Shown one piece after another: positions 11,460 through 31,674 of a stretch of 64,000 nucleotides of DNA. The stretch's first letter is position 1, and each line of letters begins with the position of its first letter. The notes beneath the pieces are model-generated. The model was given only the letters and a program-made list of their open reading frames with translations, did not search any database and was not told where the DNA came from. Both the position numbers and the translations under genes were made by a program. Location of the stretch: the NCBI GenBank assembly GCA_963752895.1, contig CAVWAE010000020.1, positions 60,878 to 124,877 of the forward strand, read 5' to 3'. Origin of the DNA: an uncultured Alphaproteobacteria bacterium (lineage in GTDB: Bacteria > Pseudomonadota > Alphaproteobacteria > Rhodobacterales > Rhodobacteraceae).

Positions 11460-11560
11460 ACCGGACGGCGAATAAGGACTGGGCGCACACCCACCTGCGC
11501 GCCCCCGGGTGTCGGTAAGGCCCGGGTGTCGGAAGGCCGGAATGTCGGAAGGGATGTGAC

Positions 11561-13199: not shown

Positions 13200-14045
13200 T
13201 CAGCGGCCGCGTGCCCAACGTTCGCCGCGGGCAGGCAGCCTGCTTGCGAATTTGACCGCAGTATAGACCGACCATCCAACCGGATCGCTCAGAAACAGCT
13301 TGAGCGTGCCGCCGGACCCGAGCGGGGCCTTGTCCTCGTTCGCCTCGAGGTCGGGCCGGAAGGCCATGACTTCGCGCACACCCTGGTCCTGGCGGCGGCG
13401 CACGCGCACCAGCGGGAAGAACCCGTCCGACAGTGGCCATTCGTAGGTCTCGGGCACCTGTACCCGCTCTGCGGCAGCGAAAACGAGCCGGGCGAAGGCG
13501 TCGTCGCCGCGCACCCGTGGCCAGGTTTCCCATCGCGCCCGGCCCGCCCGGTTCATCGCGAACAGCCCGAAGCCGGGCGCGCGGGTTATGAAAAACGGCA
13601 ACCGGGTCCAGATCCTTGCATAGGCTCGGGTGATCGCCGAGGGCGACCGGCTGACGACCGGGGTGCCGCCGCCATAGAGCGGCGCCGCGCTGTCGAGTGC
13701 GCGCGCGAGCGCCCCGATCAATCCCGGTGAGACGGTCACGTCGGCGTCGAGATAGATCAGGACCCGGCCCGTGGCCTCCGCGTCGCCGAGATCGAGCGCC
13801 AGCGGTTTGCCGCCCTCGGCACTGTCGATCACGGTGAAGGTCCAGCCCGCGTCCCGGGCCTGCGCTTCGAAGCCTCGCGCGATACGGGCGGTGTCGTCGG
13901 TGCAGCCGTTGGCCACCACGATCGCCTGCGCTTCGAGCCCGTGGATGTCCGAGCCAAGCAGCGCCGCGAGCGTCTGCCCGAGATAGCCCGCCTCGTCATG
14001 CGCCGGGATGATGACGCTGAGCATGGGCGAAGCCTGTGGTGTCAT
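13200..14045 (-). CDS. Family 2 glycosyltransferase
   Basis: MLSVIIPAHDEAGYLGQTLAALL..AIVVANGCTDDTARIA..VLIYLDADVTVSPG (GT2 N-terminal motif and DxD). Its start overlaps the stop of 14042-15745 by 4 nt. Confidence 0.8.
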   Translation of the reverse strand: MTPQASPMLSVIIPAHDEAGYLGQTLAALLGSDIHGLEAQAIVVANGCTDDTARIARGFEAQARDAGWTFTVIDSAEGGKPLALDLGDAEATGRVLIYLDADVTVSPGLIGALARALDSAAPLYGGGTPVVSRSPSAITRAYARIWTRLPFFITRAPGFGLFAMNRAGRARWETWPRVRGDDAFARLVFAAAERVQVPETYEWPLSDGFFPLVRVRRRQDQGVREVMAFRPDLEANEDKAPLGSGGTLKLFLSDPVGWSVYTAVKFASRLPARGERWARGR

Positions 14046-15745
14046 TCAGGTGTGACCTCATCGCGTGCCGCAACCAGCGCATCCCACCGCGGGTTCTTGT
14101 CTCCCAGATGACGCAGATGTCCCCAGCTGCCGTATTTGCTGGGGGATTCGACGTCAACATAGGCGGCGAAAACCCCGCCATCCACGGCTTTCCAACCCGC
14201 GAGCACCTGCTCGTAGAGCGCGGCCATTTCCGCCGTGTAGTTGAGGTGGATCAGGAAGGCGTTGAGCTCTTCGTCGTCATGTTCTTCCCAGCTTGCCACC
14301 ACGTGCGTGCCGGCCTCATAGGCGACCATGTCCAGCCCCCATTCGGCCGCGACCTCGGCGTGGTAGGGAAACAGCGTGCCGACCAGGCTCGGCACATCGT
14401 GCACACCCTCCTGGGGCCCGTCGCCCCCGGCGAGGTGTTCTGCCGCGCGGGTCACCGCCGCGTCGAACCGGTGCGCCTCGACATAGGCCGAGCGTGCGGT
14501 GCCGGTGAGCCCGTCGGCGTCGGCCTGCGCGGCGGCCGCCGCCTTGCTGTCGGCGATCCAGGCGCGCACCGGGTCGGCCCAGTCGCCGCGCCCGAGATGG
14601 CTGCCGAAATAGCCGGTCACCGCGTAAGCGTCGAAATGTTTGCCCGGGGCCGTGCGCCCGCGCTCGTCGGCCACCCATTGGCCGGCGTTGAGGATCTGCT
14701 TTTCGAGCCCCAACCAGCCGGTCTGGGTGGCGATCACCCGCACCAGGCGGGCGTCGGCCTCGTCACCGAAGACCTCGGTCCAGATGTCGACGACCTCCGT
14801 GGCCCGGCCGGCGTAGAACTGGATCCAGCTCGGGTCGCGCTTCCACAGCGCCTGGGCCTGTTCGTCGGCCCAATGCGCCTGGTCGAAGCCCCAGTTCCAG
14901 ACCTCGTTGGAAAACTCGACCCAGGCGCGCAGCTCCGGATCGAGCTGGTCGCGCACCACTTCGGCGAAGTTGCGCACGAAGTCGTCGTCGGCCAGGTGCG
15001 GGATGTTGAACCAGGGCTCGGCGCCGGTCTCGTGCGCGAGCCGGATCATGACCTCCAGAGGCACGCCGTTCATCCGGTAGCTGAGGTCGCCGGGTTCGGG
15101 GCGGTCGGCCCAATGGGCGAGGAGGGAATCGTTGGTTTCCATCCAGTCCATGAACCGCAGCACCTCGAAGCCGTCGATCAGTGCCATCCAGTCGGGATTG
15201 AATATCTCGCCTGAGCTGTGCAGCGCCACCCGGTCCTGGCGCACGACGGTGAGGTCGCGCACGTAGTCGCCGGTGCCGCCGGGATCGGTGCTCAGGATGG
15301 TGATGTGAACTGCGCCGTTGCCCGGTGCGAAGTCGAACTCGGCGCTACCCGGGCCGTAGCTCACGTTCATCGCGCCCTGGTCGATCTCGACCTCGCCGGT
15401 GCCCTGCCAGCGCACCACGTAGCGCCCGGCGACACCACCCGCGTCATCCGGCAGGCCGGTCATCACCAACGTGCCGATCGAACTCACGCCGGGCGGGATC
15501 GTTGTCGGCCAGCCTGCGTCGTCGAACACGCCCGCGGCCAGCATGTCGTCCCAGTTCATGACCTCCCAATCGTCGGCGCCGTGGCCGATCCACGGCCGCG
15601 CGGTCTTCATCAGGTCGAGAAACGGCAATCCCGTGCTCCAGTCGACCGGAGCGGCGAGATTGATCCCGAGCCCATCGGCGTCGGCGCGGGCCGGGGCCGC
15701 CAGAAACACGAGAACGGCGAGCAGAGTTTTGAACAGACGGATCAT
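14042..15745 (-). CDS. Secreted glycoside-hydrolase-like protein (N-terminal beta-sandwich-like region plus clan GH-A-like TIM barrel)
   Basis: Start chosen at MIRLFKTLLAVLVFLAAPARADA (signal peptide). Candidate acid/base WVEFSNEVWNW and candidate nucleophile MVAYEAGTH. Confidence 0.5.
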   Translation of the reverse strand: MIRLFKTLLAVLVFLAAPARADADGLGINLAAPVDWSTGLPFLDLMKTARPWIGHGADDWEVMNWDDMLAAGVFDDAGWPTTIPPGVSSIGTLVMTGLPDDAGGVAGRYVVRWQGTGEVEIDQGAMNVSYGPGSAEFDFAPGNGAVHITILSTDPGGTGDYVRDLTVVRQDRVALHSSGEIFNPDWMALIDGFEVLRFMDWMETNDSLLAHWADRPEPGDLSYRMNGVPLEVMIRLAHETGAEPWFNIPHLADDDFVRNFAEVVRDQLDPELRAWVEFSNEVWNWGFDQAHWADEQAQALWKRDPSWIQFYAGRATEVVDIWTEVFGDEADARLVRVIATQTGWLGLEKQILNAGQWVADERGRTAPGKHFDAYAVTGYFGSHLGRGDWADPVRAWIADSKAAAAAQADADGLTGTARSAYVEAHRFDAAVTRAAEHLAGGDGPQEGVHDVPSLVGTLFPYHAEVAAEWGLDMVAYEAGTHVVASWEEHDDEELNAFLIHLNYTAEMAALYEQVLAGWKAVDGGVFAAYVDVESPSKYGSWGHLRHLGDKNPRWDALVAARDEVTPE

Positions 15746-15849
15746 GACGTACCCCCAATTTGGGAAGAGATGGCGTTGGATCGCCGTGGCGGCAAGAGCG
15801 CGCCGGCACACGGGGAATGAATATTCGGTCATCGGCACTTTTCCCGGAC

Positions 15850-16560
15850 CTAGCTCGGCGCCATGTCCGCCAGCAGCACGACGGCGGCATGGATCAACCC
15901 GCCCTGCACAGCGAACCGGCCGTCCAGCCGGTGGTTTACGCGAAACGGGCCGGTGTCTACCAAAAAGGTCGCTTCGAACTGGCCGGTATCGACATCCGGC
16001 GTCACCAGCACGGCGTCGAAATCGAGCAGCTTGTGGCTGACCGGGAACTGGCATTTGTAGAAAGCTTCCTTGGCGCAGAAGATCAGCTTGGCGAGACGTC
16101 CGCGCGCCGCTTCGGGTTGGGTCGCGAGCCAGGCGCGTTCTTCCAGCGTGCAGATGGTGGCGATGAGGTCGGGGTCGAGCGGGCTGTCGTGCTCGACATC
16201 GATGCCGAGGCTCTTGACCTGCGACGACCGTGCGACGGCGGCGACACAGGTGGTGTCGTTGTGGCTGAGGCTGCCGGTGAGGCCGCGCGGCCAGGACGGC
16301 GCGCGCGACCGGTTCGAGAGCACCGGCCGGGCGCTGAGACCGAGCTTTTCCATCGCCCGGTGCGCCGCGACGCGGCCCGCGACGTATTCGCGCCGGCGGC
16401 TGTCGACCGCGCGCGGCATCTCGGCAAGTTCGGTCGGAAACGCGCCCGGATATTCGGCCCGGGGATCAGTGACCGCCACCGCGACCGGGCGTCCCGGCGC
16501 GACGTCCACGAGACCCTGGAAGGTCTCTTCCGTGGTGTGGAAGGCGGTCTCGAGCATCAC
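15850..16560 (-). CDS. 4'-phosphopantetheinyl transferase (EntD/Sfp type)
   Basis: ..EYVAGRVAAHRAMEKLG..WPRGLTGSLSHNDTTCVAAVA..SLGIDVE..IFCAKEAFYKC. The start GTGATG overlaps the NRPS stop codon. Confidence 0.85.
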   Translation of the reverse strand: MMLETAFHTTEETFQGLVDVAPGRPVAVAVTDPRAEYPGAFPTELAEMPRAVDSRRREYVAGRVAAHRAMEKLGLSARPVLSNRSRAPSWPRGLTGSLSHNDTTCVAAVARSSQVKSLGIDVEHDSPLDPDLIATICTLEERAWLATQPEAARGRLAKLIFCAKEAFYKCQFPVSHKLLDFDAVLVTPDVDTGQFEATFLVDTGPFRVNHRLDGRFAVQGGLIHAAVVLLADMAPS

Positions 16561-19500
16561 GCCGCGACCCGCCCGCGCTTCGCCCGCATCTCGCGGCGGC
16601 GCGCCATGATCGCCGCCCGGTCGAACTCGGGCAGCACGATCGGGGCGTCGGACGCCTGGTCGGGACCGGCGAGGCCGTACTTGGCCGCGAGGTGCGCAGC
16701 AAGATCGCGCAGGACCGGGAACCGGAAGACCTCGGTGATCGCCGTGCCCCCGAGCCCTTCCAGACCCTTGATTTCCTTGTGGGCCTTGACCGCGAGCAGC
16801 GAATGGCCGCCGAGCGCGAAGAAGCTGTCGTCGGCGCGGATGTCGTCGATGCCGAGCGCCTCGGCCCAGATTGTCGAGATCTGCGCCTCAAGCCCGACCC
16901 CGGGGGGCGGCCCCTCGCCGGACCGCTCGATGCGCACCTCGGCCTCGGGCTCCGGCAGCGCCTTGCGGTCGACCTTGCGGTTGGGGGTGAGCGGCAGGGC
17001 GTCGAGCACCATGAACTGCGCCGGCACCATGACCTCGGGCAGGTTCGCCACCAGATCGGCGCGGATCGCGGCGGTATCGACGGCGCCGGCCTCCTCGATA
17101 TAGGCGACAAGGCGGGTCTCCGCCCCCTCCCCTTTCGGCACCACGACCGCCTGGCGCACACCGTCCGCCCGGTTGATCCGGGCCTCGATCTCGCCCAGCT
17201 CCAGCCGCTGGCCGCGGATCTTGACCTGGTGGTCGGTGCGGCCGAGGAAGTCGAGCACCCCGTCGGCGCGCCAGCGCACCAGATCGCCGGTGCCGTACAT
17301 CCGCGCCTCTTCGAAGGTCGCGACGCCGGTCTCTTCCGCAAAAGGATCGCGCCGGAAGCGGTCGGCGTTGAGCTCGTCGCGCTGCCAGTAGCCGCGCGTG
17401 ACCCCGAGGCCGCCGATCCAGAGCTCGCCCGGCAGCCCGACCGGCACCGGCTGCATATGCGCGTCGAGCACATAGACCGTCTGGTTGGCCATCGGCTTGC
17501 CCACCGGCACGACGCCGGTTTCGTTGCCCTCGACCGGGTGCGCGGTCGACCAGATCGTGGTCTCGGTCGGCCCGTACATGTCGATGATCTGGGCATCCGA
17601 GATCGAGCGGATATCGGCGGTGAGCGAGGCGGTCACCGCTTCGCCGCCGAGCAGGATCTGCTTGAGCCCGCCGAGGGCTGCGCGCGCGCCGTCGTCGGCG
17701 AGGATCATTCGCCCCATCGAGGGTGTGCATTGCAGCACTGTCGCCTTGTGGCGGGTGAGCTGGGCGGAGAGCGAATAGTCTTCGCCGCCGCTGTCCCCAT
17801 CCGACAGGGTCACGCGGGATTCCTCGCTGACGATCACCACCTTGAAGCCGCGGGTGATGGTGTAGAACAGCTCCAGCACCGAGATGTCGAACCCGAGGCT
17901 CGTGACCGCGAGCCAGACGCCGTCATGACCCTGATCTGGCCCCTGGTCGAGATAGGCGTCCATCCCGGTGAAGAAGTTGGACACGTTGCGGTGCTCGACC
18001 TGCACGCCCTTCGGGATGCCGGTGGAGCCCGAGGTGTAGATCACGTAAGCCAGCGCGTCGCCGGGGATGTCCAGGTCCGGGCGGCTGGTGTCGGCGTCGC
18101 CTGACACCATCACCGGCACCGCGTCGGATTTCGGCAGGCTCGGGGCCAGGCCGAGGTTGGTCACCACGAAGGTGGCCTGGCTGTCGGTGACGTAATGCAC
18201 CAGCCGGTCGGCCGGATAGGCGGGGTCGAGCGGCACGTAGGCCGCACCGACCTTGTGGATCGCGACCGCCGCGATCATCAGCTCGAAGGAGCGGGCGAGA
18301 TAGATGCCGATGCGGTCGCCGGGCACAGCACCTTCGGCGATCAGCCGGTGCGCCAGCGCGTTGGCGCGCGCGTCGAGCTCGGCGTAGCTCATCGAACGGT
18401 CGTTGAACACCAGCGCGGTGGCATCCGGCGTGCGGTCGACCTGGGCTTCGAACGCCCTGTGGATCGGCCCGAGGTAGCTTTCGGCCTGGGTCTGGTTCCA
18501 GTCGACGACGGTCAACGCCCGCTCGCGCGCGGGCATCACCAGGAGCTCGCGCACCGGCCGGTCCGGCGTGGCCTTGAGGTTGTCGAGGAACAGAACGAGG
18601 CGGTCGGCAAGCAGCACGAGCGCCTCTTCTTCGATCAGCCGTGCGTCGTGCCAGAGCGTGATCCGGCCCATGCCCAGCGCGAGCGTGAGCGCGGTGCCGT
18701 CGATCGGGCCGTTGCGGCTGAGGCCGATCGAGGGCATCTCGACCGCCGCGAGCCCCGGATCGCGGGCGATGAGGTCGGCGGCGAAACTGCCCGTCCGGGC
18801 GGCGGCAAGGTCATCTGCGAGCGCGCCGGCAAGCGCGGCGACCGGCGCCGCGGCCGGGTCTTCGAGCGTGAGCGCGAGCGGTACCCAGGGGGTCACGTAG
18901 CCCGGCGTCGCCTGTGCCGCGGCCTCGATCTCGGCGCTGGCGAAGGCGAGACCCGCCCCCCAGTCGCCGGTGTTGTGCAAGGCCCAGGCCGCGAGCGCCG
19001 CGAGGGCATCGTCTTCGTTGAGCCCCTTCGGCGCGGTGAAGTGCCGCTCGCCCCAGGAGGCGAGCCCGCGGGGGCGCTGTGCGAGCGCGAGATGGGCGGG
19101 ACGAAAGCCCGCGAGGCGCGCGCGCCAATGGGGCTCACCCGGCGCGAGCGCGGCCATGGCGGCACGGAGCGCCTCCGATTGGTCCGGCTCGGGCGAGGCC
19201 AGCACCGCCCCTTCGAGGGCCGCGGTGTAGAGTTCTACCGGATGCCCGGCCATGTCGGCGAAGCCGCTGAGACGCACCGCGCCGTCGCTCGTGGCCACGG
19301 TCATCGAGTCCGGGCTCACACTCAGCACCGTGCCCGGCTCGGCGGGGGCGACGGTTTCGACCGTCTTGGCCTTGCCCACCAGCAGGAGCCGGCCGCCGGC
19401 CTTGATTTTCGGCATCGCCAGCGGATTCCAGTAGCCGCCGAAATCCAGCGCCCGGACGACCCGGGCGACCTCGACCGCCGCGCGGTTGAAATCGAGCCGG

Positions 19501-20093
19501 CCGGCCGCCTCGGGGCGCGCGGTCGGCTTGAAATAGCGCCGCCGGGCGGGGTCCTGCGGACGCCGGTCGAGTTTGCCGGCTTCGATCTGGTCGAGCACCG
19601 CGTCGAAACCTTCGAGCCCGGCGGCGTAGCATTTCGCGTTCAGGGTGAAGGCGGTCTCATCCGCGGCGATGTCGAAGTCCTTGAGGCAAAGGATGTCGCC
19701 TTCGTCCTTGGTGCCCTCGACAAGGTGCCAGGTGATCCCGTGTTTGGGCGCGCCGGCCATGAGCGCCCAGGCCGGCGTGTTGGGCCCGGCGCAGTCCGGC
19801 AGCGGCCCGTCCTGGAAGTTGATCGTGCCCTCGCGCGGGAGCGCCCTGAGCGCCTCCGAGATCACCCCCGGGTTGGCGATCGAGAGCAGCCAGTCGACCG
19901 GGATGTCGTCGTCGGCGATGATGAGATCCTCGAAGCGCGCCGCCTGGGCGAACCCCGCGTCGCGCGCCCAGGCGCGAACCTTTTCATTGGCGCTCACGAC
20001 CCCGGTGATCGTGTGACCGCGCGCCACGAGCGCGTCGCCACACCCGATGACGAGTGTCTCTTCTCCGATGAGCAGGCAGGACAACTGGGTCAT
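16557..20093 (-). CDS. NRPS-like loading module: formyltransferase-like domain, degenerate condensation-like region, adenylation domain (glycine code), PCP
   Basis: Start at MTQLSCLLIGEE (ATG at 20093). Fmt-like GTINFQDGPLPDCAGPNTPAWALM. A-domain motifs LSYAELDARANALA, YVIYTSGSTGIPKGV, FDISVLE, YGPTETTIW, GELWIGGLGVTRGY, YGTGDLVRW, GRTDHQVKIRG. PCP motif FFALGGHSLLAV. Confidence 0.85.
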   Translation of the reverse strand: MTQLSCLLIGEETLVIGCGDALVARGHTITGVVSANEKVRAWARDAGFAQAARFEDLIIADDDIPVDWLLSIANPGVISEALRALPREGTINFQDGPLPDCAGPNTPAWALMAGAPKHGITWHLVEGTKDEGDILCLKDFDIAADETAFTLNAKCYAAGLEGFDAVLDQIEAGKLDRRPQDPARRRYFKPTARPEAAGRLDFNRAAVEVARVVRALDFGGYWNPLAMPKIKAGGRLLLVGKAKTVETVAPAEPGTVLSVSPDSMTVATSDGAVRLSGFADMAGHPVELYTAALEGAVLASPEPDQSEALRAAMAALAPGEPHWRARLAGFRPAHLALAQRPRGLASWGERHFTAPKGLNEDDALAALAAWALHNTGDWGAGLAFASAEIEAAAQATPGYVTPWVPLALTLEDPAAAPVAALAGALADDLAAARTGSFAADLIARDPGLAAVEMPSIGLSRNGPIDGTALTLALGMGRITLWHDARLIEEEALVLLADRLVLFLDNLKATPDRPVRELLVMPARERALTVVDWNQTQAESYLGPIHRAFEAQVDRTPDATALVFNDRSMSYAELDARANALAHRLIAEGAVPGDRIGIYLARSFELMIAAVAIHKVGAAYVPLDPAYPADRLVHYVTDSQATFVVTNLGLAPSLPKSDAVPVMVSGDADTSRPDLDIPGDALAYVIYTSGSTGIPKGVQVEHRNVSNFFTGMDAYLDQGPDQGHDGVWLAVTSLGFDISVLELFYTITRGFKVVIVSEESRVTLSDGDSGGEDYSLSAQLTRHKATVLQCTPSMGRMILADDGARAALGGLKQILLGGEAVTASLTADIRSISDAQIIDMYGPTETTIWSTAHPVEGNETGVVPVGKPMANQTVYVLDAHMQPVPVGLPGELWIGGLGVTRGYWQRDELNADRFRRDPFAEETGVATFEEARMYGTGDLVRWRADGVLDFLGRTDHQVKIRGQRLELGEIEARINRADGVRQAVVVPKGEGAETRLVAYIEEAGAVDTAAIRADLVANLPEVMVPAQFMVLDALPLTPNRKVDRKALPEPEAEVRIERSGEGPPPGVGLEAQISTIWAEALGIDDIRADDSFFALGGHSLLAVKAHKEIKGLEGLGGTAITEVFRFPVLRDLAAHLAAKYGLAGPDQASDAPIVLPEFDRAAIMARRREMRAKRGRVAA

Positions 20094-20113
20094 GTCGGAA
20101 CCTCTGAACAGGG

Positions 20114-21115
20114 TCAGGACGCGGTGCCGGACGGCGCCGCGCGGTGGGTGAACAGGGAGCGAAAGTGGTGGCGCAGGAGATCGCGCCCGAAGCGGCTGGT
20201 ATTGCGGTAGCGCACGGATTTCGGGTTCACGAGACGGCGCAGCATCCACACGCCCTCGCCCGCCAGCAGCGCCAGGGTGACCGCGATGGTATAGGGCAGC
20301 CCGTAGTTCTTGCGGAAATAGTAATAGCGCGAGTCGAACCAGTAGTTCGGCACCCGTTCCCAGCGGTCCATGCCGGTGGCGACCCCGCCGATATGCACGA
20401 CGCGGCTGTCGGGCAGCGACCAGATCTCCCACCCCGCCCGCTTGCAGCGCAGGCACAGGTCGGTTTCCTCGAAATAGAGAAAATAGGTCTCGTCGAAGAG
20501 CCCGACCTCGTCGAGCATCGCCTGGCGGAACATCACCGAGGAACCCGACACCCAGTCGACTTCGACCGTGTTCAGAGCGACCGGCGACGGGTCGCGACCG
20601 CGTTCGAGGAGTTTCGAGAACACCGCGGTGCGGGCCGCGTCCTCGAACTCGCGCACCATGTTGGGAAAGCGGAAAGCGCCGTAGGCGGGCGCGCCGTCGG
20701 GCGTCAGGATCAGGCTGCCGGCGACACCGACTTTCGGGCGGGCCTCGAAGAAATCGACCAGCGCCCGGATCGCGCCGGGTTCCGGCACCGCGTCGGGGTT
20801 GAGCAGATAGATGTAGTCGGGTTTCTCGCCCGAGGTGAGACCCGCCCGAATTGCGAAATTATTGCCCGAACCGAAGCCGCCGTTGTGGCCGGCGCTGTAG
20901 ACATGGATCCGGCCGTCCTCGGCCCAGCCCCTTTCGGCAGAGGCCGCCAGCAGGTGCTCGAGGGAGCCATCCTGAGAATCGTTGTCGACGATGGCGATCT
21001 CGCCGCCGAGATCCGCCATTTCGCGCAACGCCCCCTCCGCGGCCTTCACCGCCAGTTCGGGCGTGCGGTAGTTGAGGATGACCGTCAGCACCTTGGGTTC
21101 AGACAACAGGTTCAC
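20114..21115 (-). CDS. Family 2 glycosyltransferase
   Basis: KVLTVILNYRTPELAVKAAEGAL..IAIVDNDSQDGS..GHNGGFGSGNNFAIRAGL..YIYLLNPDAV. The GTG start is immediately preceded by TAAGGAG, which includes the PKS stop. Confidence 0.85.
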   Translation of the reverse strand: MNLLSEPKVLTVILNYRTPELAVKAAEGALREMADLGGEIAIVDNDSQDGSLEHLLAASAERGWAEDGRIHVYSAGHNGGFGSGNNFAIRAGLTSGEKPDYIYLLNPDAVPEPGAIRALVDFFEARPKVGVAGSLILTPDGAPAYGAFRFPNMVREFEDAARTAVFSKLLERGRDPSPVALNTVEVDWVSGSSVMFRQAMLDEVGLFDETYFLYFEETDLCLRCKRAGWEIWSLPDSRVVHIGGVATGMDRWERVPNYWFDSRYYYFRKNYGLPYTIAVTLALLAGEGVWMLRRLVNPKSVRYRNTSRFGRDLLRHHFRSLFTHRAAPSGTAS

Positions 21116-21118
21116 TCC

Positions 21119-24100
21119 TTACTCCGCCGCTTCCCGGGCGTCCCACTGGACGATCTCCCCGGGAGAGGCGAGCGCCACGTCGATCCGCGTGCGCAGGTAG
21201 GTGCCAAGAACACCGACATTGGGCACCAGGACCATCGATCCGTGGTCGCCCGGCACCTCGACGACTTCCAGCTTCGGGATGTGTTCACCCCAGTCGTTGT
21301 CGTCGCTCACGTAGCGTTTTTCCGAGGTGATCCACCGGCCGCGGCTCACCTTGTAGTGCTTGTCGAGCGCCGGACGCATCAGGACGACGTTCATGTCGTA
21401 TTGCGGCGGCTGATAGGCCGCGATCGCATCGCGGAAGGCCATCTCGATCCGGTGGTTGTGGAACGTGCCTTCCGGCTCGTCGTTGCCCTTGCGGCGTTTC
21501 TCGAACTCCCAGGCGATCCGGTTGCGCGCCCATTCGAACACGTAAGCCCCACCCTTCTTGCGGAATTCTGCGAGCTTTATCAGTGCCTTGTCGATCTTTT
21601 TCAGGACCGGATCCTGGACCTTGTAGGTGTCGAGCAGGACCACGAGCGCCGCCTCTTCGCCTTCGGCCTCGAGTTGGCGCGCGATCTCCAGCGCGGTGAT
21701 CCCGCCGCCCGAGAACCCGCCGACCACGTAAGGCCCCTCGGGCTGGATCTGGCGCATCTCGGCAAGGCAGGACGCGGCGGCCTCCTCAAAGCTGTGCAAG
21801 GTCTCGTCGTCGCCGAGCAGTCCCTTCGCCTGGAGCCCGTAGACGGGGCGGTCCTTGCCCAGGATCTGCGCGATGTGGCGCAGGTTGAGCACGTTGCCGA
21901 ACATGCCGGCGACCAGGAAGACCGGTGTCGCATGGGTCTCGCGCGAGCGGTTGAGCGGCACGATATGGGTGAAGGCCGGACGGGTCTCGCCAGCCGCGGA
22001 GCCGTCGCCGCCGGTTGCGGTCTGGCGGTCGATGCGCGCCGCCCATTCGCGGATCGTCGGCGCCTCGGCCAGTACGGCCAGGCCGAAATCCGTCGCCCAG
22101 GTCTTGTTCACGTTGGCGCAGAGCCGGACCGCGATCAGGGAATGGCCGCCAAGGTCGAAGAAATCGTCGTCGATCCCGACCTTTGAAATGCCGAGCAGCT
22201 TCGACCATTCCTCGGCCAGCGCCGTCTCGACCTCGGTCTCGGGCGCGGCATAGGCGGTGTCGAGATCCGGGCGGTCGAATGTCTGCCCCGGCGCGTGCGC
22301 CACAGGCTCGGTCCGGTCGGCCTCGGCGATGAGGCCCGCGAGATCCAGCGAGCTGACAAGGACCTGCGGCAAGCCGAGCGCGAGGCTGCGCTCCAGGGCC
22401 GCGAGCCCCTCGCCCGGGCGGATGCCCTGGCCGACGTTCCAGGCCAGTTGCGCCTCGGCGGCGGTGCGCTTGTGCGGCGCATCGGCAGGGTCGGGAAAGG
22501 TCACATCGGTTGCCGTGAGCGGCGCCGGCGCAAGCCCTGTCTCCGGGTCCACCCGCTTCATCCGCAACCCGCCGATCTCGACCAGCACGGTGCCGTCGAG
22601 ATCGCACAACGTCACCTCGAACAGGGCGCTGTCGAGCGGGCCGTCGGCCGGCGCGAGCCGCACCCAGCAGGCCAGTTCGGCCCCGAGCGGGCGGTGCACC
22701 CGGATCGTGGCGCAGCTTTCGGGCAACCAGAGGCTGCCGTCGACATGGTTCGGCGCCAGCCCGACCGCCCAGGTCATGGCGAGGTCGAGCAGGCCGGGGT
22801 GAAGGATCATCCCCGGCGCCAGTGTGTCCATCGCCGCGGCCGGCAGTTTGAGCCGGGCCAGCCCTTCGGTCGTGCCGAGGGCTGTCTCCCGAAGCCCGTG
22901 CCACGCCGGCCCGTAGATGAGCCGGGCCTCCTGCGGCGCGCGCAGGTGATCGTCCTCGGCGGCGGAACTGGGCGTGCCGTTCTGACAGCGCACGGCGACG
23001 GCGCCGAGATCGACCGGCGGCGGCGCTGTCGCATCGAGCGCCGTCACCTTCGCCCGCGCATGGGTGAGCCGGGCGGCGCGCCCATCGACGCTGACATCGC
23101 TGTGCAATTCGAACTGCACAGCCGCAGCGTTCTGGCGCATCCGGACCGCGGTTTGCGGGGCCCGGGCCCCGGACCCGGCGCCGGCCAGGAACGGATGGTC
23201 GAGATGCAGGCCCTCGATCTCGAGCGGAACCGCACCGCCATCGGCCACGAAGCCTTCGGCGGCCAGTTCGATCATCGCCGCGGCGGGCATCAGCCCGGTG
23301 CCTGCGCCAATACCTGATCCCGTGCCTGAGCCGGTGCCGGACCTGACCTGGTGCTGGTCGAGCACCCAGGCGCGCCCGGCCTCCCAGGTGGTGCGTAGCA
23401 GCCGCACCCCGTCGCGGTCGAACCCGGCGGTGCCGATGAGCGGCGCGTCGACCGGCACCCCCGGCGCCTCCGACGGGTCCACCGGATCGAGCGCACGCGC
23501 GACCATGCCGATGTCCGACCAGACGCCCCAGTTGATCGAGACCACCCGGGTTTCGCCGCCCTGCCGGCTCTTGGCATAGGCGTTGAGATATTCGTTGGCG
23601 GCCACGAAATCGACTTCGCCGGCGTTGTGTGTCGCCGTCGTGGTCGAGGAGAACAGCACCATGAGGTCGGTGGAACCGTCCGGGAACAGCTCTTCGAGCA
23701 CCCGCAGTCCGTCGATCTTGGGCGCGAACACCAGTTCCATCGCCTGCGGGTCGCGGTCGAGGAGCGGGCCGTCGTCGAGCACGCCGGCCGCATGGAGCAC
23801 CCCGTCGATCCGGCCGTGGCGCTCGGTCACCGAGGTGACAACGGCGCGCATGGCTTCGAGGTTGGTCACGTTGGCGGCGGCGATCTCGATCTCGCCGTCG
23901 AGCATTTCGAGCGCCTGGACGCCGCGAATGGCGGCGGCGATGCGGTCGCCGGGCGCGCTGCGCGCCAGTACCCCGTCCCAGCTTTCGCGCGGCGGCATCG
24001 CGCGCCGCCCGACCAGGATCACCCTGGCCGCATGGCGCTCGAGCAGGGAGCGTGCCACGTCGAGCCCGAGGTCGCCGAGCCCACCGGTGATGAGATAGGT

Positions 24101-27100
24101 GCCGCCGTCGCGGAAGGCCGGCGTTTGCGGCGCCTCCAGCTTCACCTTGGTGTAGCCCTGCCGGTACCGGCGCGCGTCGCGGTAGGCGGCAACCTCGTTC
24201 GCCGGGTCTGCCAGCAGGTCTTCGAGAAGCCGGAGCGCGAGGGCGTCATGATCGGGTTTGGTCCGCCTGCCGAACAGGCCCTTGCGGGCCGGCGCCGGGC
24301 CGACCGGTTCGAGATCGAGGGTCGCGCAGGTGACCCCCGGCAATTCGCGCGACATCACCCCGGCGGGGCCGGCGATCGTCGCCTTTTCGGGCGAGGCGAT
24401 CGGCCCGCCGTTCACCGACGCCGAATCCCGCGTGACGGCCAGGATGTGGACCGGCCCGGAGAGATCGGCGCGGCCCAGCGCCTGGGCGAGATAGGTCAGG
24501 CTGTAGAAGCCGTATTCCATGTTGTCATGGAACGGGTCCGAGCCGAGCCGGTGGGAGTCCGCCCCGAACAATCCCCAGAAATGGGCAATGCGGGTGGGGG
24601 TGAGCCCCTTTTCGGCAAGGTCCGAAAACAGCGCCTCGTAGCCCTCGCGCCCCTGTTCCGACAACAGCGAATAGCGCCGCTCGCCGACTTCGGCGAAGGT
24701 GTCGCCCGAGACCACCCGGACCACCGTGTGACCGGCCGCCTCGAGGCGGTCGAAAGCGGCCCTGGCGATCCCCTCGCTGTCTTCGAAGACCAGCCAGGTT
24801 TCTTTCGGGGCGCGGTCGAGCCCGGTCGCCACATCGTATTCGCAGGCGGCATAGGCCGGGTACCAGGCCGGACGCCAGCCCCAGTCGGCGATGTCTTCCT
24901 TGCGCAGGAGATCGTGCGACACGGCCGACGCCGTCGCGGCAGCGGTGCGCCCCGGTTCGATGAGATAGCGCGCACGCTGGAAGCTGTAGCCGGGCAGCGG
25001 GACACGGTGGCGCTTGGCCTCGGCCCAGAACTGGCCCCAGTCGGCCTCGACCCCAAGGGCCCAGAGCCGGGCCAGCGCGCCGATGAAATGCACATCGTCG
25101 GCAACGGGCGCCGCGGGATCGCGCAGCGTGTCGATGAACCGGTCCGCGGTCACGCCTTCGGTGTCGAGGACACGGGCCGCGAAGCCCGGATCGCGTGCGA
25201 GCGCGAGGAACACCCTGTCGGGACTTGCCGCGAGCGCGGCGATCGCCGCGGCGAGATGGCTTTCATCCCCACCGGCGGAGACCCAGGTCTCCGGGCTGGT
25301 CGCCTGTTGCGGCGTGATCGGCGCGCCGGTGCGAGCCGAGACCAGCGGCATCCCGGGTGCGTGCAGTTCAAGCCCGCTGGCAAAACCGCGCACTTCGGCG
25401 CGCGCGGCTTTGCGCGCGTCGGCCTGTTCTGTCGCGGTCAGGCGCCCGCGCAGATGGGCGAGCTTGACGGCCTCTTCGAACGTCAAGACGCCCGCGACCA
25501 CCGCGGCGGCGGTTTCGCCCGCCGAGGCGCCCACCAGCGAGACCGGCGCCACACCCCAGGACAGGGCGAGCTGCGCCATCGCGACGCCGAGGATCACGGT
25601 GAGCGGTTCGGCAATGGCGGGGGTTGCGAGCCGGTCGGACGCCGCGTCGTTGCGCTCTTCGGCGAAGCAGAGCGCGCGCAGATCTTCGCCTGCCTGTTCA
25701 CCCAGCTGGTCGCCGAACGCATCGAACCCGCGCGCCATCCAGTCGTTGAAGACCGGTTCGGTCTCGTAGAGATCGCGCGCGGTGCCCGGCGCGAGCACCG
25801 GCGCGCCCGGGAACAGGAACACGACGCCCGGGGCGGACCCGAGGCGGTCATGGGTGAAAACCCGGCGTTCGTCGCCGGTGTCAAGCAGGCGCGCGGCCTC
25901 GGCGTGGTCGCGCGCGACCAGCACCCGGCGCTTGTCGAACCGCTTGCGCCCCTGCATCAGCGTGAAGGCCACGTCGGCCAGCGGCTGTTCGGGATGGGCG
26001 CGCAGATGGGCCGCGAGGCGTGCCGACATCGCGTCGAGCGCTTGGCCGTTGCGCGCCGAGAGCACGATCGGCTGGAACGGGAACACGCCCGGGTCCGAGG
26101 CCGCACGTTCGGGCGCCTGTTCGAGCACCGCATGCGCGTTGGTGCCGCCCACGCCAAGCGTGTTGACCGCGGCCCGGCGGGGGGATGCGCCCGCGGGCCA
26201 GGCGGCGCGCTTGTCGTTCACGTAGAACGGGCTGGCCGCGAAATCGATCATCGGGTTCGGCGCCTCGTAATTGAGGCTCGGCGGGATCTCGGCATGGCTG
26301 AGCGCCAGCGCCGTCTTCACCAACCCGGTGACGGCGGCGGCGGTGTCGAGGTTGCCGACGTTGGTCTGGACCGAGCCGATGCCGCAGAACTGCGCCCCTT
26401 CGGCGCCGCGCGCCCGGTAGGCCTCGGTGAGCCCGGCCACCTCGAACGGATCGCCCAGCAGCGTGCCGGTGCCGTGGCATTCGACATAGGCGATGGTCTC
26501 GGGCGCGACCCCGGCGGCATCGAGCGCCTGGCCCACCACCGCGGCCTGCCCGGCCTCGGAGGGCGCGAAGAACCCGGCCTTGTCGGCGCCGTCGTTGTTG
26601 AGCCCGGTGCCCTTGATGACCGCCCAGATATGGTCGCCGTCGGCCAGCGCGTCCTCGAGCCGGCGCAGCACCACCGCGCCCGCGCCCGAACCCATGACCG
26701 AGCCGCCCGCCTTGTGGTCGAAGGCGCGGCAATGGCCGTCGGGCGAGAGAATGTCGTTCTCGCGGTAGAGATAGCCGCGTCCATGCGGCATCTCGACCGA
26801 GACGCCGCCGGCCAGCGCCATGTCGCACTCGCCGTCCTTGAGCGCCTTGGCTGCCTGGTGGACGCCGACCAGCGCGGTGGAGCACGCCGTCTGGATGTTG
26901 ATCGACGGCCCCTTCAGGTCGAGCAGATGGCTCACCCGGGTCGACAGGAAATCCTTGTCGTTGCCGGTGTTGCGCAGCTGGAACGGCCCGAGATCGTCGA
27001 CCAGATCGGGGTTCGAGAACAGGTTCAGATAGAGATAGCTGCCCGCCCCGCAGCCGGCGAACACGCCGACCCGTCCGGCGAATTCTTCCGCCGTGTGACC

Positions 27101-27436
27101 CGCGTTCTCCAGCGCCTCCCAGGCGGTTTCGAGAAACTTGCGGTGTTGCGGATCGAGGATCGCGGCCTCTTTCGGGCTGAAGCCGAAAAACTCGGCGTCG
27201 AACATGTCGTAGCCGTCGAGCAGTCCGGCGGCGGGCACGTAGTTTTCGCGCCGCATCATCTCGGGGCTTTCGCCGGCCGCTTTCAGCTGAGGCGGGTCGA
27301 GCCGGGAAATGCTCTCGACCCCGTTGGCGAGGTTGTCCCAGAAGTCATCGAGCGTCGCCGCACCGGGCAGGTTGACTGCCATGCCCACAATCGCGATGTC
27401 GCCTGACGCATCGCCGGATAATTTACGTTGGGTCAA
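21119..27436 (-). CDS. Type I polyketide synthase, domain order KS-AT-KR-DH-ACP-TE
   Basis: KS (DIAIVGMAVNLPG, IQTACSTALV, ECHGTGTLLGDP), AT (FLFPGAP.., GASAGE), KR (GTYLITGGLGDLG), DH (LDQHQVRSG..LMPAAAMIE, HPGLLDLA), ACP (FFDLGGHSLIAV), TE (GFSGGG). The ORF is open to the ATG at 27526; a TTG at 27436 behind AGGA is the more plausible start. Confidence 0.88.
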   Translation of the reverse strand: MTQRKLSGDASGDIAIVGMAVNLPGAATLDDFWDNLANGVESISRLDPPQLKAAGESPEMMRRENYVPAAGLLDGYDMFDAEFFGFSPKEAAILDPQHRKFLETAWEALENAGHTAEEFAGRVGVFAGCGAGSYLYLNLFSNPDLVDDLGPFQLRNTGNDKDFLSTRVSHLLDLKGPSINIQTACSTALVGVHQAAKALKDGECDMALAGGVSVEMPHGRGYLYRENDILSPDGHCRAFDHKAGGSVMGSGAGAVVLRRLEDALADGDHIWAVIKGTGLNNDGADKAGFFAPSEAGQAAVVGQALDAAGVAPETIAYVECHGTGTLLGDPFEVAGLTEAYRARGAEGAQFCGIGSVQTNVGNLDTAAAVTGLVKTALALSHAEIPPSLNYEAPNPMIDFAASPFYVNDKRAAWPAGASPRRAAVNTLGVGGTNAHAVLEQAPERAASDPGVFPFQPIVLSARNGQALDAMSARLAAHLRAHPEQPLADVAFTLMQGRKRFDKRRVLVARDHAEAARLLDTGDERRVFTHDRLGSAPGVVFLFPGAPVLAPGTARDLYETEPVFNDWMARGFDAFGDQLGEQAGEDLRALCFAEERNDAASDRLATPAIAEPLTVILGVAMAQLALSWGVAPVSLVGASAGETAAAVVAGVLTFEEAVKLAHLRGRLTATEQADARKAARAEVRGFASGLELHAPGMPLVSARTGAPITPQQATSPETWVSAGGDESHLAAAIAALAASPDRVFLALARDPGFAARVLDTEGVTADRFIDTLRDPAAPVADDVHFIGALARLWALGVEADWGQFWAEAKRHRVPLPGYSFQRARYLIEPGRTAAATASAVSHDLLRKEDIADWGWRPAWYPAYAACEYDVATGLDRAPKETWLVFEDSEGIARAAFDRLEAAGHTVVRVVSGDTFAEVGERRYSLLSEQGREGYEALFSDLAEKGLTPTRIAHFWGLFGADSHRLGSDPFHDNMEYGFYSLTYLAQALGRADLSGPVHILAVTRDSASVNGGPIASPEKATIAGPAGVMSRELPGVTCATLDLEPVGPAPARKGLFGRRTKPDHDALALRLLEDLLADPANEVAAYRDARRYRQGYTKVKLEAPQTPAFRDGGTYLITGGLGDLGLDVARSLLERHAARVILVGRRAMPPRESWDGVLARSAPGDRIAAAIRGVQALEMLDGEIEIAAANVTNLEAMRAVVTSVTERHGRIDGVLHAAGVLDDGPLLDRDPQAMELVFAPKIDGLRVLEELFPDGSTDLMVLFSSTTTATHNAGEVDFVAANEYLNAYAKSRQGGETRVVSINWGVWSDIGMVARALDPVDPSEAPGVPVDAPLIGTAGFDRDGVRLLRTTWEAGRAWVLDQHQVRSGTGSGTGSGIGAGTGLMPAAAMIELAAEGFVADGGAVPLEIEGLHLDHPFLAGAGSGARAPQTAVRMRQNAAAVQFELHSDVSVDGRAARLTHARAKVTALDATAPPPVDLGAVAVRCQNGTPSSAAEDDHLRAPQEARLIYGPAWHGLRETALGTTEGLARLKLPAAAMDTLAPGMILHPGLLDLAMTWAVGLAPNHVDGSLWLPESCATIRVHRPLGAELACWVRLAPADGPLDSALFEVTLCDLDGTVLVEIGGLRMKRVDPETGLAPAPLTATDVTFPDPADAPHKRTAAEAQLAWNVGQGIRPGEGLAALERSLALGLPQVLVSSLDLAGLIAEADRTEPVAHAPGQTFDRPDLDTAYAAPETEVETALAEEWSKLLGISKVGIDDDFFDLGGHSLIAVRLCANVNKTWATDFGLAVLAEAPTIREWAARIDRQTATGGDGSAAGETRPAFTHIVPLNRSRETHATPVFLVAGMFGNVLNLRHIAQILGKDRPVYGLQAKGLLGDDETLHSFEEAAASCLAEMRQIQPEGPYVVGGFSGGGITALEIARQLEAEGEEAALVVLLDTYKVQDPVLKKIDKALIKLAEFRKKGGAYVFEWARNRIAWEFEKRRKGNDEPEGTFHNHRIEMAFRDAIAAYQPPQYDMNVVLMRPALDKHYKVSRGRWITSEKRYVSDDNDWGEHIPKLEVVEVPGDHGSMVLVPNVGVLGTYLRTRIDVALASPGEIVQWDAREAAE

Positions 27437-27582
27437 TGTCGAATTCCTGTTCCCCCAATACAGGCCAACTGCATAACAAATACCTGCGTGGAACAGTAGC
27501 TGGCCTCCGGCAAGATACCGCCGCAAGTCGGGTAAGTATTTGAAAAATTAGTGAAAACAGATTATTCACGAAATAGGATACA

Positions 27583-27601
27583 GTTTCCGTTACAGAAACA
27601 A
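27583..27601. promoter_or_regulatory. GTTTC-N7-GAAACAA palindrome in the PKS / wecB-like divergent intergenic region
   Basis: caGTTTCcgttacaGAAACAAtc, read directly, about 150 bp upstream of the PKS start. Confidence 0.3.
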
Positions 27602-28030
27602 TCTGTCCACTCCGCGGCATTTGCATGAACAAAGGGATAATGTGCGGCGCGACACGGAGTTGAATTCGCCCCGCGGGGGCTCGACACCCCGAATTGCTCC
27701 ACCGCCCCGCGTGATGAACAGGGACCCGAAATTGGCGCATATCCCGTCCGGTCGGTTTGGTTTTCGACATCTTGCGGCTTCCGGCCAGAGTGCCGCGACA
27801 TCTTGACGGAAGCCACGAAACACCCCCACGGCCCAGCTCGAGACAGTGGTTCCAAAGCGGAAACAATCCTGGCAAAACAACGGTGACTTTGCGTGGCTTT
27901 CGCCACAATCCATCCGCGGCGGCCCCGATCCCGCCGAATCCCCGTTTCATTCCGGCTCCAATCGACCGATAGGATCCTGCCCGGGCGCCTCGCGTCCGGG
28001 ATTCGAAACCGCTGAAGAGAGGTCCAGCCC

Positions 28031-29757: not shown

Positions 29758-30625
29758 GGTGCCCCCTCCGCGCGCCAGCCGGCGGCGATCCGGGCCACGT
29801 CCGGGCGCCAGTCGGGCTGGGCGAGACCGTAGGCTTCGGCGATGCGGCTGCAGTCGAGCACCGAGTTGGCCGGGCGTTCGGCGGGGGTGGGGAAGGTATC
29901 GGACGAGACCGGGTCGATCCGGGGCGGGTTCGGGGTGCCGGCCAGGATTGCGCGGGCGAAATCGTCGCGCGCGACGGCCGGGGCGCCGGCGTAGTGGAAC
30001 AGCCCGGGCACGCCCTGCCCCGCCTCGAAAGCCCGGGCGATGTGAAGGAGCGCCTCGGCCACGGCGCGCGCGGGCGTCGGGCTGCCGCGCTGGTCGTCGA
30101 CCACGCTGAGCACGTCGCGGGTGGCGCCGAGGTTCAGCATGGCGGTGACGAAATTCTTCGCCGCGCCGTCATAGACCCAGGCCACCCGCAGGATCACGGC
30201 GTCGCCGCCGGCGTCGCGCACGGCGCGCTCGCCGTCGAGCTTCGACTGGCCGTAGTAACCCAACGGCGCGACCGGGTCGTCCTCGCGCCAGCCGCGTGTG
30301 CCGCTGCCATCGAACACGTAGTCGGTGGAGATATGCAGGAAGGGCACGCCCTTCGCCGCCGCCGCGGCCGCCATCGCGCCCGGCGCTGCCGCGTTGACCA
30401 AGTTTGCCGTTTCCCGGTCGGTCTCGGCCGCGTCGACGGCCGTGTAGGCGGCGGCGTTGATGACGGCATCGACCTCAGCGGCGGCAATGGCGCGGGCACA
30501 GGCGTCCGGATCGGTCAAATCGGCCGCGTCACGCCCCAGGACCTGAGCCTCGATCCCCTCCGCCGCGCATGCCGCGGCCAGCGCCCGGGCGACCTGGCCC
30601 GTCTTGCCGAAAACCAGGAGCCGCA

Positions 30626-30626: not shown

Positions 30627-31674
<1,048 letters not shown>

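Follow-up and report, generated by a model that had tools for sequence, protein, structure and literature searches.

A four-gene cluster encoding a polyketide synthase (PKS), a glycosyltransferase (GT), a non-ribosomal peptide synthetase (NRPS), and a phosphopantetheinyl transferase (PPTase) is reported as a conserved feature of roseobacters, present in 28 of 57 genomes; papers from 2015 and 2016, the cluster passages of which credit its description to Martens et al., call the product uncharacterised (PMC4337385, PMC5014874). A Rhodobacterales hybrid of the NRPS-like/type I PKS class was reported in 2023 without a meaningful match in MIBiG (PMC10584327). We found no product assignment for the cluster in the literature up to 2026, and such an absence is no proof that none exists. 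Here, we analysed a stretch of 64,000 nt (the window) from an uncultured member of Rhodobacteraceae (GCA_963752895.1, contig CAVWAE010000020.1, positions 60,878–124,877), in which six co-oriented minus-strand genes (27436–13200) encode, in order, a PKS, a family 2 glycosyltransferase (GT2a), an NRPS, a PPTase, a secreted glycoside hydrolase (GH)-like protein, and a second family 2 glycosyltransferase (GT2b). Judged by gene order and protein identity, the window carries a member of this orphan Rhodobacterales NRPS-PKS cluster; the cluster is of a known kind, and the window copy is a new, reduced variant. New here are the near-universal polysaccharide context of the cluster, its association with the GH-like gene, a GH-A model for the encoded protein, and a glycine code for the NRPS. 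We put at roughly 0.5 the probability that the cluster is a module of a Wzx/Wzy-type, rhamnose-linked surface-polysaccharide pathway and not a stand-alone antibiotic cluster.

Relatives were sought in one genome per species, scanned with the N-terminal 530 residues of the NRPS; 80 loci were fetched in this way, and loci from other look-ups were added. Among the matches listed, at least 590 relatives were confirmed at species level, nearly all of them from Rhodobacterales. The PKS, GT2a, NRPS, and PPTase genes are co-oriented in that order in the window, in the chromosome of Phaeobacter inhibens (locus L001), and in 79 of 81 related loci, with GT2a between the PKS and NRPS genes in the same 79/81. 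By tblastn, the proteins are 31–53% identical over their full lengths to those of Phaeobacter, Leisingera, Ruegeria, and other loci. An earlier interpretation made from the letters of the DNA (the sequence-only reading) had pointed to a conserved roseobacter cluster of this composition and had taken its product as not established; gene order and protein identity bear out the first point, the literature agrees with the second, and the proposed check of synteny across Rhodobacterales gave the core order in the 79 of 81 loci. The window shares with the roseobacter cluster its core order and orientation, the glycine-type code, and the carrier and thioesterase (TE) motifs, but lacks the monooxygenase insert, the acyltransferase (AT) core, the ketoreductase (KR) tyrosine, the second ketosynthase (KS) histidine, the formyltransferase histidine, and the SGNH gene, all of which are considered below. 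Furthermore, the cluster of the literature comprises four genes, whereas the unit in the window comprises six within a polysaccharide locus, and most relatives add an SGNH gene. Three metagenome-assembled genomes labelled Hydrogenophaga or Burkholderiales among the matches listed (L050, L056, L073) hold a complete core cluster with the monooxygenase insert; these copies reflect either horizontal transfer out of Rhodobacterales or binning error.

A single, translationally coupled minus-strand unit had been claimed from the sequence, and the open reading frames (ORFs), Pfam domains, and tight junctions of the six genes confirm this description. The type I PKS gene (21119–27436; 2105 aa) ends with TAA at 21121–21119, 3 nt before the GTG (21115) of GT2a (20114–21115; 333 aa). 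The stop codon of GT2a (20116–20114) is followed after 20 nt by the ATG (20093) of the single-module NRPS gene (16557–20093; 1178 aa), which has GAGG 7 nt 5' of it. The NRPS TGA (16559–16557) overlaps the start of the PPTase gene (15850–16560), read as GTG 16560 or ATG 16557 (GTGATG). The GH-like gene (14042–15745; 567 aa) and GT2b (13200–14045; 281 aa) overlap by ATGA (14045–14042). The 20-nt gap and both overlaps read exactly as had been described; the spacer between the PPTase TAG (15852–15850) and the GH-like ATG (15745) is present as claimed, although its exact length is 104 nt and not about 105 nt. Related loci have median junction spacings of −4 nt (PKS/GT2a), −2.5 nt (GT2a/NRPS), −4 nt (NRPS/PPTase), and −4 nt (GH-like/GT2b), and gene order and tight junctions are repeated across dozens of genera.

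Some translation starts require revision. TAAGGAG at the end of the PKS gene had been taken for the Shine–Dalgarno sequence of the GT2a GTG, but its final G is the first base of GTG 21115, and therefore its GGAG cannot serve that codon. The candidates are either GGAG at 21125–21122 (6-nt spacing) for GTG 21115, or TAAGGAG for an in-frame TTG at 21106 (8-nt spacing). The 5' end of the PKS had been placed at 27526; the most likely start, judged from ribosome-binding signals and conservation, is TTG 27436, which has AGGA 8 nt upstream and is itself kept in L082 and L083. These two loci (~91% and ~80% protein identity to the window, respectively) represent the same locus, and form the reference pair for ratios of nonsynonymous to synonymous substitution (dN/dS) given below. 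The public call for the GH-like gene has 596 aa from ATG 15832, 29 codons earlier than ATG 15745; ATG 15832 is not kept in L083, whereas ATG 15745 and its signal peptide are.

Independent promoters or terminators had been named in advance as evidence that would divide the unit, and the scan for them places neither at any junction. Terminator-like sites number seven against 8.0 expected from shuffled sequence, with none at operon junctions; there is one promoter-like site against 1.1 expected, again at no junction, although the consensus used is of the E. coli type and this is weak evidence against internal promoters. The 104-nt spacer folds no better than chance (z = 0.77 relative to shuffled sequence). 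With short or overlapping junctions throughout and no terminators between genes, we propose that the six genes are a single operon transcribed from the wecG–PKS intergenic region.

The polysaccharide setting asserted for this operon is confirmed by Pfam. The locus spans rmlA (7011–7889, minus strand) to rmlC (31675–32244), with the operon in its middle. On one side, plus-strand genes convergent to the operon (8333–12766) encode a Bac_transf initiating sugar transferase, a ParA-like P-loop protein, a Wzz-like protein, and a GT4 glycosyltransferase; on the other (28031–32244), a plus-strand gene for a WecG/TagA-family glycosyltransferase is followed by minus-strand GT2, rmlD, rmlB, and rmlC genes. 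The same setting recurs in relatives: 58 of 59 full-length loci contain one or more additional genes for polysaccharide assembly (Wzx, Wzy, Wzz, WecG, GT4, Bac_transf, or rml), and 56 contain two or more; this holds in all three layout classes, including loci without the GH-like gene. In Shimia, the order is GT2b-like, Wzx, PKS, GT2a, NRPS, PPTase, Wzz/GNVR, Bac_transf, and Wzy-like; in Pararhodobacter, it is WecG, Wzy-like, PKS, GT2a, NRPS, and PPTase. In P. inhibens, PKS, GT2, NRPS, PPTase, a 300-aa protein, an 856-aa GH-like protein, and GT2 are followed by a convergent GT4 gene and then Wzx and Bac_transf. The cluster also occurs with the same neighbours on plasmids or chromids of Parasedimentitalea and Ruegeria. 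Among the genes annotated around the operon, there is no transporter, TonB-dependent receptor, or resistance gene; a siderophore cluster was rejected on the grounds that receptor and transport genes are not nearby.

The GH-like protein was placed by fold comparison only, as searches of Pfam, NCBIfam, and PDB sequences gave no match even at E = 1. Its AlphaFold model (pLDDT 90.4, pTM 0.89) has a beta-sandwich followed by a (beta/alpha)8 barrel, after a predicted signal peptide (MIRLFKTLLAVLVFLAAPARA). In Foldseek, the best matches are to GH5 and GH10 (E = 4e-5), with GH1 and GH26 also matched, at ~10% identity and target TM-scores of ~0.5; the model thus has the barrel fold of GH-A, while Pfam and NCBIfam assign the protein to no named GH family. 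N280-E281 lie after a strand at 274–278, and E477 lies within a strand at 472–478 (strand numbering from the model alone); these residues are invariant in 32 homologues, and are candidates for the acid/base and nucleophile pattern of retaining GH-A enzymes. The signal peptide, the modelled GH-A fold, and the conserved Asn-Glu and Glu motifs are in line with the exported GH-like protein proposed from the sequence, and a secreted glycanase-like enzyme is supported at the level of fold and motif.

The family to which this protein belongs comprises 10,101 cluster representatives (50% identity) at E ≤ 1e-3, and has no Pfam model. Its members are often fused to RTX repeats or to Big_9/cadherin-like, Calx-beta, or G8/CEMIP beta-helix modules, and the GH-like domain is often present in multiple copies in proteins of 1000–3300 aa (P0249–P0397). 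RTX, cadherin-like, and G8/CEMIP modules are typical of extracellular glycan-active proteins. The protein in the window is thus one entry point to a very large group of glycan-active extracellular domains not yet covered by Pfam. With respect to the cluster, a GH-like gene lies 3' of the PPTase gene on the same strand in 30 of the 62 loci whose sequence extends far enough past the PPTase gene, and all three sampled GH-like homologues adjoin an NRPS gene or lie within ~8 kb of one. Where relatives have GT2b (Pfam GT2 in the window) after the GH-like gene, the median overlap between the two genes is 4 nt; among related loci, GT2b is downstream in 24 and upstream of the PKS gene in 14, and no C-terminal fragment of a GH-like protein was found at the edge of the fetched stretch in the loci with GT2b upstream.

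Typical relatives encode a ~300-aa periplasmic protein between the PPTase and the GH-like protein; in the window, only the 104-nt spacer (15746–15849, minus strand) stands where most relatives have this SGNH-fold gene (L001 and L085 compared), and a search of the window for a homologue found none. In relatives, the GH-like protein often carries a paralogous domain at its N-terminus and then reaches ~840 aa. When modelled, this N-terminal domain resembles SGNH/GDSL esterases, as well as a family 3 carbohydrate esterase and the acyltransferase SsfX3, and its GHSL and DxxH motifs are invariant; the SGNH domains of relatives are unrecognised by Pfam. In typical clusters, SGNH domains are encoded as a separate gene, as a GH-like fusion, or as both (L001, 9102–10880; P0024, residues 1–268), and the stand-alone 300-aa copy opens with an apparent Tat-type signal (RRGFL). 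The SGNH domain is missing jointly with the monooxygenase, the AT core, and the KR tyrosine in the window, in L083, and in L086, a sister lineage described below.

The NRPS comprises a formyltransferase-like domain (19254–20093), the C-terminal half of a condensation domain (18504–19253), an adenylation (A) domain (16974–18503), and a peptidyl carrier protein (PCP) domain (16689–16883; GGHSL), with Pfam matches to Formyl_trans_N, Formyl_trans_C, AMP-binding, and PP-binding; public protein P0121 is 100% identical to it. The formyltransferase-like domain shows weak likeness to the F domain of LgrA (15 bits). Its Asn-His-Asp motif, NFH...DEGD in typical copies and in L083, is NFQ...DEGD in the window (His to Gln); NFH is present in 76 of 79 aligned NRPS, and NFQ only in the window and L082. 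In the condensation remnant, conserved in all homologues, the HHxxxDG region is absent; residues 281–530 resemble the C-terminal half of a condensation domain, and NCBIfam EntF and PRK05691 alignments reach residues 364–545. The specificity code of the A domain, read from alignments with the DhbF glycine module (5u89) and with LgrA module 2, is DILQLGMIWK, a 9/10 match to the glycine code DILQLGLIWK, and this glycine-type code is conserved over all 79 aligned homologues; the A domain is thus predicted to load glycine. Core motifs A3–A10 and the PCP serine are intact, as expected of an initiation module. Typical NRPS of the cluster have ~1500–1550 aa, with a luciferase-like monooxygenase of the MupA/Atu3671 type inserted between A4 and A5; each of the 80 loci recovered by the N-terminal NRPS query has the insert, which the window lacks. 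Of the NRPS lineage without the insert, a search of 5.8 billion protein clusters found only P0121–P0126, P0128, and P0134. The same formyltransferase-like N-terminus is found in NRPS on plasmids or chromids of Neorhizobium, Shinella, Rhizobium, Bradyrhizobium, Paracoccus, Methylobacterium, and Mycetohabitans (H4–H15), several of them annotated as MupA/Atu3671-family; the loader architecture thus extends beyond roseobacters.

The PKS, with Pfam matches to KS, KS-AT linker, partial AT, KR, PS-DH, PP-binding, and Thioesterase, departs from typical copies in several catalytic motifs. The KS domain (26264–27400) has its cysteine in TACST and its first histidine in HGTGT, but the second histidine of the canonical Cys-His-His triad (TACSS, HGTGT, NIGH) is replaced by asparagine (NVGN for NIGH), giving Cys-His-Asn; (T/S)NIGH is present in 68 of 72 aligned PKS (71 homologues and the window), and N(V/L)GN in the window, L082, and L083. 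The closest solved structures to this KS are hybrid or trans-AT-type KS domains. Other condensing enzymes of the thiolase fold, FabH and chalcone synthase among them, are catalytically competent with a Cys-His-Asn triad. The AT is a remnant (25394–25822; positions 1–134 of the 319 in the Pfam profile), in which GHSMG has become GASAG and a 66-residue deletion takes out the small subdomain together with the AAHS histidine motif, so that the GHSxG/His pair is lost; across the window, L082, and L083, the first motif is GASAG or GVSTG. In the KR (23513–24103), the NADPH motif TGGLGDLG is intact, but the catalytic tyrosine of YxxxN is phenylalanine (VDFVAAN, against VDY(V/I)AAN in typical copies). 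The dehydratase (DH)-like domain (22541–23362; Pfam PS-DH) has an LDQH histidine motif and an HPGLLD motif, and its HxxxGxxxxP motif is split by an in-frame Gly/Thr/Ser repeat, SGTGSGTGSGIGAGTG (~23291–23341; PKS residues ~1366–1382). This repeat is longer in L082 and missing in L083, and looks like microsatellite-type length variation inside the coding region. The carrier domain (22031–22222) has a PCP-type GGHSL that is invariant among homologues, and the C-terminal TE (21122–21925) has a conserved GFSGG; both serine motifs are thus intact. With the AT gutted, the KR tyrosine lost, and the second KS histidine lost, textbook KS-AT-KR-DH chemistry does not apply directly to the window. The PPTase, which matches 4PPT_N (E = 1e-24) and ACPS (E = 2.5e-15) in Pfam, is of the Sfp type.

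Typical relatives retain the formyltransferase Asn-His-Asp, the A4–A5 monooxygenase, the KS Cys-His-His, a full AT (GHSMG...AAHS), and the KR tyrosine. The window, L082, and L083 share the loss of the insert, the 66-residue AT deletion, KR Tyr to Phe, KS His to Asn, and the loss of SGNH. The window copy is an atypical, reduced variant from a rare lineage, a point that the sequence-only reading had missed. The window PKS is 48–52% identical to typical copies, which are 54–65% identical among themselves. Relative to L082 and L083, dN/dS is 0.17–0.25 for the six operon genes and 0.13–0.17 for flanking polysaccharide genes, and typical-relative pairs give 0.05–0.30 for PKS and NRPS. The window operon genes are under ordinary purifying selection, and these values rule out pseudogenes in the window. 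Within the PKS (0.18–0.25 overall), the KS is the most constrained domain (0.06–0.11), the KR is still constrained (0.12–0.14), and the AT remnant is under the most relaxed selection (0.31–0.38). Because KS and KR are the most constrained domains, we do not call them dead; the view that KS, KR, and formyltransferase are simply dead is softened accordingly, the formyltransferase His-to-Gln change being confined to the window and L082.

Decay is graded across two further loci of the insert-less lineage. In L087 (1–9987), the NRPS of which is ~69% identical to that of the window, the NRPS gene follows the PKS gene after 147 nt with GT2a gone, and GT2b follows the PPTase gene with the GH-like gene gone; its A-domain motifs are eroding and its TE motif is altered. 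Within the insert-less lineage, accessory genes have disappeared independently of one another. L086 (GCA_002754915.1, 716–11410; NRPS ~54% identical) has the same operon as the window except for GT2b. Its A3, A4, A5, A7, and A8 motifs, A10 lysine, PCP serine, and KS histidine motifs are all destroyed, although the PKS and NRPS ORFs are full-length and uninterrupted; GT2a, the PPTase, and the GH-like gene remain conserved. The PKS and NRPS of L086 are 54% identical to those of the window, against 68–87% for neighbouring genes, and GC content at first and second codon positions (GC1/GC2) has drifted to 0.81/0.59. The decay of the L086 megasynthases may escape notice at the level of ORFs because stop codons are scarce in high-GC DNA. 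A search of protein clusters for a close relative of the L086 NRPS, as needed for dN/dS, found none, so that decay is read from the destroyed motifs, the excess divergence, and the GC1/GC2 drift only. The full cluster, the reduced form of the window, and the eroded form of L086 constitute a natural deletion series for the domains and accessory genes that travel together (monooxygenase, AT, KR, SGNH, and GH-like).

The tie to surface polysaccharide is drawn because the polysaccharide context is near-universal, a GT2 gene lies between the PKS and NRPS genes, and SGNH and GH-A domains are correlated in presence and absence. Several observations weigh against the tie, or against parts of it. About half of the related loci have no GH-like gene, which is thus not obligatory for the core cluster. 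L087 retains NRPS, PKS, and PPTase while lacking GT2a and the GH-like gene; conversely, the megasynthase motifs of L086 are destroyed while GT2a, PPTase, and GH-like genes persist. The L086 pattern means that the sugar enzymes do not strictly need the assembly line; this fits an optional decoration and, equally, mere co-location. A scan with an E. coli consensus leaves room for an internal promoter in the 104-nt gap. With a Cys-His-Asn KS, a Tyr-less KR, and a gutted AT, polyketide extension may be absent from the window copy, and all product-level steps rest on gene context. The sequence-only reading, which is partly supported overall, had proposed a glycosylated amino-polyketide or a decoration on a glycan as the product; the observations would fit an optional decoration, a glycolipid, and a free glycoside equally well.

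The first competing explanation is that the NRPS, PKS, GT2a, and PPTase produce a small molecule that is free and diffusible (e.g., a glycosylated glycine-polyketide signal, toxin, or chelator), with the polysaccharide position an inherited accident and GH-like and GT2b genes belonging to a separate, co-transcribed exopolysaccharide (EPS) pathway. The composition of a classical biosynthetic cluster, with a terminal TE and a dedicated PPTase, speaks for this, as do the absence of the GH-like gene from about half of the loci and the independent loss of the two halves in L086 and L087; the literature treats the cluster as one for secondary metabolism (PMC4337385, PMC5014874, PMC10584327). However, 58 of 59 full-length loci lie among Wzx/Wzy/Wzz/WecG/GT4 genes, across many genera and in three layouts, and chance linkage would not survive so much rearrangement. 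Additionally, the operon has no export pump or resistance gene, and the GH-like/GT2b overlap and the loss of SGNH together with assembly-line domains suggest a shared function. We therefore consider a free small molecule unlikely.

Alternatively, the assembly line could be vestigial in the window lineage and heading to the L086 state, with at most glycine loading or a non-catalytic role left, such that only GT2a, the GH-like protein, and GT2b matter for the polysaccharide. Such decay would account for the loss of the monooxygenase, AT core, KR tyrosine, second KS histidine, and SGNH in the window, L082, and L083, and of the formyltransferase histidine in the window and L082; it would also accord with the destroyed A-domain, PCP serine, and KS motifs of sister lineage L086, with L087 as an intermediate, and with the tiny size of the insert-less lineage among the 5.8 billion protein clusters. 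Against it, dN/dS for the PKS and NRPS of the window clade (0.18–0.25) is inside the typical range with KS and KR the most constrained; A-domain core motifs, both carrier serines, the KS cysteine, the TE serine, and the PPTase are intact; and the Cys-His-Asn triad is competent in FabH and chalcone synthase. A vestigial assembly line thus seems distinctly unlikely. Last, we regard as very unlikely that an iterative PKS builds a long glycine-primed lipid to which GT2a adds rhamnose, giving an outer-membrane glycolipid (likened to mycobacterial glycopeptidolipids and heterocyst glycolipids) or a polysaccharide lipid anchor (likened to Sinorhizobium rkp-1): a single PKS module with KR and DH after the AT, the adjacent rmlABCD genes, and a weak top NCBIfam match of GT2a to rhamnosyltransferase would suit it, but there is no enoylreductase, the Tyr-less KR and gutted AT make repeated reductive cycles implausible, and the KS groups with hybrid/trans-AT modular KS domains and not with iterative KS domains of the PUFA/FAS type.

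If the cluster does serve a surface-polysaccharide pathway, the PPTase would activate the two carrier domains, as suggested by domain content, and the A domain would load glycine onto the PCP, as predicted from the 9/10 code match. The KS would take the glycyl unit through no more than one or a few extensions with malonate, which we infer to be supplied in trans because the cis-AT core is absent; the beta-keto group would probably remain unreduced in the window copy because the KR tyrosine is phenylalanine. The TE may then release or transfer a small amino-acyl unit, and GT2a may join it to a sugar or lipid-linked sugar. The resulting glycoconjugate would enter or decorate the exported polymer, with GT2b adding a further sugar, and a periplasmic or secreted enzyme of the GH-A type might trim or release the polymer. 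Under this scheme, the window lineage would most likely make a simpler glycine-derived substituent.

A more far-reaching proposal, to which we give less than even odds and hold tentatively, is that the cluster in hundreds of Rhodobacterales species is no antibiotic cluster but a new kind of module, dependent on carrier proteins, by which a Wzx/Wzy surface polysaccharide receives a glycine-derived unit before extracytoplasmic SGNH and GH-A enzymes process it, with the window lineage as its natural minimal version. Within this proposal, a defective-looking megasynthase under strong purifying selection implies a non-canonical catalytic or scaffolding role. The cluster is among the most widespread roseobacter biosynthetic loci, and its product has been unassigned since its first description. 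Roseobacter-group bacteria are major marine surface colonisers and algal partners. If the cluster modifies polysaccharide, its product should be sought in EPS, lipopolysaccharide, or capsule, and through attachment and biofilm phenotypes, and not in organic extracts and inhibition assays; in this way, the finding renders the old question of the product more testable.

The 594-bp divergent intergenic region shared by the PKS gene and wecG (27437–28030) has lower GC content and, from its sequence and its alignment with L082 and L083, is the probable promoter and regulatory region. It contains two copies of GATTGTTTC (27603–27595 and 27868–27860), an inverted repeat GTTTC-N7-GAAAC (27599–27583), and a GNRA-loop hairpin GTGGC-GAAA-GCCAC (27906–27893). 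Blocks of this region that are kept in L083, despite proteins only ~80% identical, are candidate regulator sites. An Rfam scan of the window gave no match to a riboswitch or to any other RNA family. The polysaccharide locus is flanked by genes for a TRAP transporter, DctP and DctM (3107–5147), and a DctQ neighbour is also present in L083; the locus boundary is therefore conserved within the lineage. Beyond rmlC, minus-strand genes at 32567–39635 encode a TamB-like protein (1299 aa), a TamA-like Omp85/POTRA protein (735 aa), and a LuxR-family regulator (254 aa).

Parts of the operon resemble characterised systems. The MtaG and MelG modules of myxothiazol and melithiazol synthesis have a glycine A domain with a monooxygenase between A4 and A5, and typical relatives of the window share a glycine-type A domain with a luciferase-like monooxygenase at the same position. 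However, MtaG and MelG are terminating C-A(MOx)-PCP-TE modules, whereas the roseobacter clusters have a loading module with a formyltransferase-like N-terminus, from which the window has lost the insert. LgrA of linear gramicidin synthesis (F-A-PCP), the best PDB match, likewise has a formyltransferase fold before A-PCP, and its glycine module is the best-matching stretch; in contrast to LgrA, the F domain of the window NRPS shows marginal likeness only (15 bits), F and A are separated by half a condensation domain, and the motif histidine is glutamine. Oxazolomycin and conglobatin have formylglycine loaders of the F-A-PCP type. An oxazole-forming loader of the oxazolomycin kind was rejected for the window, as none of the six operon genes encodes the cyclodehydratase needed for oxazole formation and the formyltransferase histidine is missing.

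With regard to surface glycans, AlmEFG adds glycine to Vibrio cholerae lipid A, and DltABCD performs D-alanylation. As in Alm and Dlt, an adenylating enzyme and a carrier in the window would load a small amino acid, in those systems for a surface glycolipid or polymer, and DltA-type ligases are among the A-domain matches; unlike them, the window has a KS megasynthase with a TE after the loader and no transferase of the AlmG or DltB/DltD type, and transfer to a glycan is an inferred step. Mycobacterial glycopeptidolipid loci contain NRPS, PKS, rhamnosyltransferase, and sugar-nucleotide genes, and thus likewise combine NRPS and PKS with glycosyltransferases and rhamnose-precursor genes for a surface glycoconjugate; the window differs in having no multi-module lipopeptide NRPS, and in its Wzx/Wzy context in a Gram-negative bacterium. 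Finally, glycoside hydrolases are encoded in exopolysaccharide loci, as for PslG, BcsZ, rhizobial ExoK/ExsH, and the PlyA/PlyB glycanases. The operon of the window likewise places a secreted glycanase-like protein inside the locus of the polymer that it presumably processes, and RTX repeats are found in the GH-like family as in ExsH and PlyA. The GH-like protein differs from enzymes of the PslG/BcsZ/ExsH type in having no detectable sequence relation to Pfam GH families or solved structures, and in being translationally coupled to a carrier-protein assembly line.

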